DNA of 63,705 nt, counting the filler, from Phoronis australis (Eukaryota > Animalia > Phoronida): assembly GCA_002633005.1 (NCBI GenBank). It is 5 parts of 5 records of this genome, joined end to end, with 100 filler letters (N's around TTAATTAATTAA, not from the genome) between each part and the next. Parts side by side here need not be neighbours in the genome. Positions count along the whole stretch, not along the records: positions 1 to 27,045 come from NMRA01000023.1; 4 more parts are not named here. One strand, given 5' to 3'. The notes under the pieces were generated by a model. That model worked only from the letters and a program-made list of their open reading frames with translations, ran no database searches and had not been told where the DNA came from. How positions within the stretch are numbered: the first letter of the stretch is position 1; every line of letters starts with the position of its first letter. Below, one piece after another: positions 7,511 through 8,504 of the stretch. A program made the translations under genes and the position numbers.

Positions 7511-7632
7511 GACCCCACGGTCCATACACCCACTGGAAACAGACGGTGCTGTACTTAGATGGCTATCTCACGGTGAAATGCAACGAGGAGATAAACGGCA
7601 TGTTCTCCATGAAACCCAACCCCAAAAACTAT
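7511..7632 (+). CDS. PRMT1: PRMT1 THW-loop exon, copy A ([41 protein letters not shown])
   Basis: 122 bp; ctttcag acceptor, gtgagt donor; phase 1-0; YTHWKQT motif. Confidence 0.92.
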
Positions 7633-8382
7633 GTGAGTTCCCACTACCCCCACTCATTGTCCTGTCCATGTAGCGTGTGGTCACTTAATAGTGGGAATGA
7701 CTGGTGTATGCATGTGACTTTGTCGTTTCGCTCTATGTTGTATCTGCAGGTAGTTGGTGTTTCTGTAACTTAGTGTGTCTGCTTCGCCAACTGGAACCGT
7801 CACTGTTGCACTGTCATACTGGCCATCCCACTCACGTGCCTAATTTTCCTAGTGGTAATATTAGTCCTTCGTCGCTTCCTAAATGACGGGCAATCTTTTT
7901 ATCGGAGTATCCTTGACGACCGGACCTTCTCTTCCTCTTGTACCCTCTTTAACTGTTCTTNNNNNNNNNNNNNNNNNNCCCCCCCCCCTCCCCGACTTCC
8001 CTAACAATGTTCCAGGAAAACGGGGCCCATATTGGCAGCCCATAGGTAACTGCCAACAGTGAGAGAATGCTTCCAAATTCTAAGCTTCATCTGTCTCACC
8101 TTTCCTCCTTAGTTCTCTCTGCTGCTCCTCTTTCTTCATCTGTGTCTTCTTAGTACAAGGACAAAGTGCAGTGTTTTATGGTGTACAGCTCCATCCATTG
8201 TGCGAGTTCTTTGCCTCCTCTTCCTACTCATCGACTCTCCCTTTGATGAGAACAGCTTGTTTCAGGACAGTAGCCTGCTTGCTGGGACCTACCGAATGCA
8301 GACGCACAGTGCTCAATCCCACCACCTCCATCATTGTTACTTAGGCAACTAAACAGTGAGCACCCCCTGTTGACTATTGTAG

Positions 8383-8504
8383 GCCCAGAAGCACGCTATA
8401 CTCACTGGAAACAAACTGTACTGTACCTTGATGACTACCTGACTGTAAAGAAAGGAGAAGAGATAGCTGGCCAGATCAGCATGAAACCCAACGCTAAGAA
8501 TAAC
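8383..8504 (+). CDS. PRMT1: PRMT1 THW-loop exon, copy B ([41 protein letters not shown])
   Basis: 122 bp; ttgtag acceptor with ttgac branch-like motif, gtgagt donor; phase 1-0; YTHWKQT motif. Confidence 0.92.

Follow-up and report, generated by a model that had tools for sequence, protein, structure and literature searches.

Mutually exclusive splicing of two THW-loop exons in a PRMT1 gene of Phoronis australis

PRMT1 is the chief enzyme of protein arginine methylation. Can a single PRMT1 gene supply its transcripts with either of two versions of the exon that carries the THW loop, and if so, would the two resulting enzymes differ in what they do? The question is raised by a stretch of DNA from Phoronis australis of 63,705 nucleotides, filler included, which we call the window. 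It contains a gene that we assign, by its motif I, double-E loop and THW loop, to the PRMT1/8 type I arginine methyltransferases. The features of the gene and of the exon pair are given below; PRMT1 exons 5' of the first one lie outside the window.

540..695, + strand: PRMT1 constitutive exon (motif I); tblastn, 80% to P0001; AG/GT ends
1383..1446, + strand: PRMT1 constitutive exon; tblastn; AG/GT ends
2369..2517, + strand: PRMT1 constitutive exon (double-E loop); tblastn; AG/GT ends
3536..3623, + strand: PRMT1 constitutive exon; tblastn; single copy in the window; equivalent to the exon that varies between Mytilus isoforms
4870..4985, + strand: PRMT1 constitutive exon (dimerization arm); tblastn; single copy; equivalent to the exon that varies between Lingula isoforms
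5535..5685, + strand: constitutive exon before the pair; RNA, donor spliced to A or B
7511..7632, + strand: mutually exclusive exon A, the minor and more diverged copy; RNA joints; PF22528
7961..7978, no strand: assembly gap in the A-B intron; 254 letters in a DNA contig, intron about 986 nt
8383..8504, + strand: mutually exclusive exon B, the major copy, nearer to the orthologue consensus; RNA joints; PF22528

Exons A and B are 122 nt long each, with phase 1-0, AG before and GTGAGT after, just as an earlier note on this DNA had described them. They correspond to residues 305-344 of human PRMT1, which comprise the THW loop and part of the β-barrel, and the best structure matches of both peptides are PRMT8 and PRMT1. 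The reading frame is open with either A or B alone. Including both shifts the frame, and translation would end at codon 20 of B, with 62 nt left to the last junction; this bears out the note's remark that joining the two exons breaks the frame. A third copy of the exon was not found within the window. Further upstream, loose ends of RNA at 4870 agree with the 3' end of exon 3536-3623, and exon 4870-4985 is joined to 5535 by 35, 26 and 59 reads in three runs. The intron before exon A contains two nearly identical 71-nt tandem copies at 5778-5921. The terminal exon of PRMT1 is absent from the window by tblastn and by a 17-nt pattern search, perhaps through a break downstream of B, which might lie at the single N at 9540. 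Between 8505 and 10800, this N and repeats (10486-10786 resembling 1-317, and 9314-9452 resembling 10800-10937) suggest a collapsed join.

Other parts of the window hold further features. Two open frames at 15559-18666 (+) match no Pfam family and are probably the exons of a further, unnamed gene that follows PRMT1, and a GC-rich tandem repeat at 25363-27093, open on both strands and also without a Pfam match, reaches the N blocks. The frames at 39594-44271 contain C2H2-like and repeated TQT motifs, have no Pfam match at 0.01, and presumably resemble ATMIN/ASCIZ. Within 59049-62402, Pfam identifies an immunoglobulin-domain exon at 60464-60916 (+) and a rhodopsin-family receptor at 61707-62402 (-).

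To follow the use of the two exons, we read about one fifth of each of three raw RNA runs from a single study (X6, X7 and X8), together with contigs of a second study (X5), presumed to be RNA. RNA was mapped on 4800-9300, with a second mapping on 7470-9195 that omitted run X8, and joints were listed from a threshold of 3 reads per run. The donor at 5685 is spliced to exon A (7511) by 11, 26 and 6 reads in the three raw runs, and to exon B (8383) by 28, 35 and 61 reads. Downstream, the terminal exon is reached from exon A by 15 and 7 reads in two runs, and from exon B by 43, 27 and 48 reads in three. The contigs of the second study form a bubble with two paths, with a depth of 28 for A versus 61.4 for B. 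Both exons lead into the same 30 nt (X6, X7 and X5), which in orthologues are the start of the terminal exon; over four runs and two studies, A and B have the same upstream and downstream neighbours. A joint from A to B (7632-8383) is listed in no run at 3 or more reads, with only 7-15 reads leaving A, and a low rate of such joining would still be compatible with the data because of this threshold. The A/B pair of PRMT1 is real, expressed and spliced in a mutually exclusive manner, of which we are all but certain. This is what the earlier note had proposed: its two junctions 5685>7511 and 5685>8383 are both present, the junction 7632>8383, which it expected to be missing or sensitive to nonsense-mediated decay, is not listed at this threshold, and its own counter-scenario, transcription of one exon only, is contradicted by the presence of both A and B in RNA.

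At the upstream junction, exon A accounts for 28%, 43% and 9% of the reads in the three unlabelled samples (chi-square p 7e-5). In run X7 the 43% upstream stands against 7/34 (21%) downstream (Fisher p 0.04), and because of this mismatch the spread between samples may partly be noise. Sense-strand intron reads are seen around the pair at 5857-8876, with a bin depth of up to 7, and none in 5102-5403 or 5706-5856; they are fewest in the sample with the least exon A, and possibly represent slow splicing or internally primed pre-mRNA. Two runs contain two reads apiece that join 6927/6928 to 4983 with the same 8 letters between; these are perhaps chimeric. Two RNA letters disagree with the window, one inside exon A at 7545 in a single contig and the other at 4961 in every run; both changes are silent, at third codon positions.

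How long have the two copies existed side by side? A and B have the same residue at 29 of 40 whole codons, and 16 of these 29 codons differ synonymously, a recount that agrees with the figures of the earlier note. Over the exon, 80 of 122 nt are identical, with matches at codon positions 1, 2 and 3 in 30, 32 and 17 of 40 codons, respectively. Between the flanks, aligned in register, 22-23 of 100 positions agree, which is the level of chance and upholds the note's view that the flanking introns are unrelated. With a dN of 0.25 and saturated dS (not computable by NG86; 4.3 by ML), the comparison indicates an old tandem duplication under purifying selection, again in agreement with the note. In the tree, the end branch of A measures 0.36 versus 0.098 for B.

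A and B have the same residues throughout exon positions 5-16, the THW motif among them. The 11 differences, at human positions 306, 307, 308, 321, 327, 328, 332, 334, 335, 341 and 344, adjoin the THW motif and sit on barrel surfaces. For comparison we used 125 unique orthologous exons from 192 of 248 proteins, with 51 proteins left out because of indels or truncation and 5 that carry no THW motif. Exon B lies near the consensus, with a mean distance of 11.2 to these exons, against 14.5 for A (n=125). At human position 321 exon A has a glycine where 121 of the 125 have aspartate or glutamate, and neither its cysteine at 327 nor the glutamine of exon B at 334 is found in any of them. The positions that differ between A and B are mostly ones that vary among orthologues (mean entropy 1.67 versus 0.56 bits), and the A-B distance of 11 in 40 residues is no greater than the orthologue median of 12.

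Several of these positions have a described role in human PRMT1. In the portions of the papers available to us, D321 and P308 are docked, not structure-derived, contacts of the H4 tail, and the weak filament interface 3 includes F332 (PMC11681865); T327 makes an interface-3 contact (PMC12272085), and S307 is a regulatory phosphosite of CDK5 (PMC10539482). Positions 307, 308, 321, 327 and 332 all differ between A and B, and a serine at 307 is found in neither. The strong interface-2 residues within the exon (Y322, T324, V325 and K326) are unchanged between A and B; Y322 was mutated, as Y304, in a tetramer-breaking construct, according to the accessible part of PMC11255602. The note's two catalytic-core variants with different substrate preference are a hypothesis. 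Because the THW motif is identical and the differences fall mostly at orthologue-variable positions, the swap is likelier to affect substrate-tail binding or oligomer surfaces than the catalytic pocket.

What could enforce the choice of one exon? Steric hindrance, which calls for a donor no more than about 50 nt from the branch point, does not fit an A-B intron of about 986 nt, and a clash between U2 and U12 splice sites does not fit sites that are all GT-AG. The AG-free zone before B is short, at 20 nt, and a branch-like motif lies at -31. As for RNA structure in this single genome, the best stems between introns do not rise above shuffles in 6 of 6 intron pairs (intron sequence other than the 254 nt of the gap and the end of the last intron), nor do local folds in 8 of 8 cases (z from -1.35 to +1.04). 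Two structures picked out by eye, a hairpin covering the A donor and a short stem by B's branch region, were dropped, since the folds were not above shuffles. By the general 50-55 nt rule, which may apply in this animal, nonsense-mediated decay acts on stops at about that distance before the last junction. The simplest proposal is that the frameshift together with nonsense-mediated decay acts as a backstop to exclusivity.

Could the pair be something other than a splice switch with two distinct products? The N gap between A and B and the terminal exon missing from the window speak for a fusion of two alleles or two paralogues at the gap, but a single DNA contig of 3729 nt covers both exons without interruption and fills the gap with 254 letters; the earlier note had counted 18 N there. 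Moreover, the upstream and downstream RNA neighbours of A and B are identical to the letter, and the 34% nucleotide difference between A and B is not allelic, so that the note's statement that the pair is neither an allele nor an assembly duplicate survives. Its fear that the gap hides a second PRMT1 paralogue can be laid aside because 254 nt are too short to hold one. As the run behind this contig may have served for the assembly itself, the contig confirms the layout, yet does not stand for an independent individual. Barring a second identical terminal exon within the 254 letters, the contig rules out such a fusion, and we regard an assembly artefact as extremely improbable. Alternatively, the pair might control the dose of the enzyme: splicing factors methylated by PRMT1 would push the inclusion of A and B together, and thereby decay, in a feedback loop. 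The stop of the A+B message at 62 nt before the last junction would suit such a loop, as would the sense-strand intron reads near the pair, which are missing from the bins at 5102-5403. We nevertheless consider it very unlikely, since the A-B join is listed in no run, both single-exon paths are plentiful and in frame, and intron reads are missing in the bin 5706-5856, which argues against simple retention of the whole intron.

It may also be that the splicing is real and both exons are used while the two proteins function about equally, a near-neutral redundancy in which both exons would stay constrained because both are used. Such a reading accommodates the unaltered catalytic motif, the position of the differences at orthologue-variable sites, an A-B distance close to the orthologue median, and the patchiness of the duplication, with Tubulanus and Lingula showing no swap of the THW exon among the isoforms listed. 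It is harder to reconcile with two copies that are intact and spliced although their synonymous sites are saturated, as a dispensable copy should presumably have decayed, with an exon A that has two residues found in 0 of 125 orthologous exons, and with A/B usage that varies between samples; we think redundancy possible, but doubtful. Our preferred reading, which we judge to be probable, is a two-exon PRMT1 with functionally divergent A and B forms. An old tandem duplication would have provided two PRMT1 versions of the THW-loop exon; the RNA joins the common upstream and terminal exons via A or via B, and the predicted products are two enzymes of equal length that keep the catalytic motif. 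The A and B forms would likely differ in substrate-tail grip and oligomer packing, messages with both exons would be removed by nonsense-mediated decay, and B may serve generally, with A as a regulated and tuned variant.

Is such a pair found in other animals? We surveyed database protein models from 30 clusters, with up to 15 members taken per cluster, of named species with at least two isoforms listed. Among the isoforms listed, equal-length PRMT1 pairs whose differences lie within one core exon were seen in 3 of the 12 spiralian genera, in none of the 20 arthropod species and not in the one hemichordate. The isoforms X1 and X2 of the nemertean Lineus longissimus (XP_064635731.1 and XP_064635732.1, 356 aa each) show 10 differences, all in the THW exon, and one copy is without the acid at human 321. 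The Lineus pair is thus like the window pair in that the same 40-residue exon is swapped and the acid at 321 is lost in one copy; it comes from an automatic annotation. The variable sites of the two pairs overlap at 6 positions (expected 4.75, p 0.27). Rare residues are common to both copies within a species, namely leucine at exon position 13 in the window and serine at 18 and cysteine at 33 in Lineus, which favours separate duplications or gene conversion; AU tests over 40 columns with three groupings reject neither a shared nor a separate duplication (p 0.34-0.43). None of the 36 other rows of the tree exceeds 88% identity to the window PRMT1 core, to which the tree gives no definite place within Spiralia and which it does not group with Lineus. 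A search with exon A alone yielded a single protein from one candidate, and the PRMT1 of the window itself was absent from the matches compared, whose top identity was 90%.

In Lingula anatina, X1 and X2 (P0224/P0206; XP_013417121.1 and XP_013417122.1) are equal in length and have 12 differences, all in the dimerization-arm exon, where X2 changes an otherwise well-conserved stretch; they likely represent a separate mutually exclusive pair. The Mytilus pairs (P0227/P0196, P0225/P0226, P0228/P0197, P0229, P0199) have 5 differences, all in the exon that corresponds to window 3536-3623. The two isoform types recur from one Mytilus species to the next, and a tandem of both copies is present in two gene models. 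P0182 differs from P0185/P0186 at 4 positions, all in the THW exon, and was not counted, as P0182 is possibly chimeric with a related species. We tentatively suggest, as a possibility rather than an expectation, that PRMT1 is a convergent hot spot of exon duplication in Spiralia. In this reading no fewer than three lineages, and probably four separately from one another (the window animal, Lineus, Lingula and Mytilus), would have duplicated different exons that line the path of the substrate tail and the oligomer surfaces. This suggestion is a lead because the depth of annotation is uneven between species, the pairs are database models, and further isoforms may exist.

The mechanism of exon swapping is already well described. 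PKM, ATE1 and RAB6A are tandem duplicated exon substitutions in a human catalogue (PMC8373072, in the part available) and, like the window PRMT1, have two homologous internal exons of which one is used at a time. The general pattern in the available portions of PMC8373072 and PMC5740500, a core that is kept and variable surface residues near functional sites, also fits the PRMT1 pair. Events of the type of PKM, ATE1 and RAB6A are mostly ancient and conserved, whereas the PRMT1 pair is patchy among invertebrates. PRMT or CARM1 gave 0 matches in the supplement of PMC8373072, where positive controls were found; PRMT1, PRMT8 and Art1 are absent from the supplements of PMC5740500 by a whole-word match run with no positive control, and PRMT from a 15-kb, maybe incomplete, portion of the supplementary data of PMC9741552. 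An account of annelid PRMTs treats, in the text available, gene complements and PRMT6 (PMC12153100). For human PRMT1, the accessible part of PMC8619983 describes variants v1-v7, which differ at the N-terminus, and mentions 58 more uncharacterised variants as well as a novel exon that lies between exons 11 and 12. The variants v1-v7 resemble the window pair as a case of PRMT1 splicing, which in human alters activity and substrate preference, but they are N-terminal, and a duplicated core exon is absent from that part of the account. A report of duplicated core exons in any PRMT was not found among the titles and abstract openings of the best matches (the top 15-30 where there were more), in a search of literature other than subscription papers and bioRxiv supplements. 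The PRMT1 case hence appears to be new, though the Lineus pair is already in the database, uncommented.

It is an open question by what means one PRMT1 chooses between so many substrates, and attention has recently turned to surfaces off the active site and to the oligomer state. The A/B pair offers an exchange of those surfaces that arose naturally and has long been under selection, with an unchanged catalytic motif, so that the pairs of the window animal, Lineus, Lingula and Mytilus are ready test pairs. Repeated exon duplication is enriched in ion channels and other membrane proteins, as stated in the available part of PMC9741552; the present finding would put a housekeeping enzyme of chromatin and RNA among the families with repeated exon duplication. 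If the hot spot is true, each gene would produce mixed oligomers whose substrate range can be switched, and the exon pairs would be a splicing counterpart to the vertebrate gene split of PRMT1 and PRMT8.
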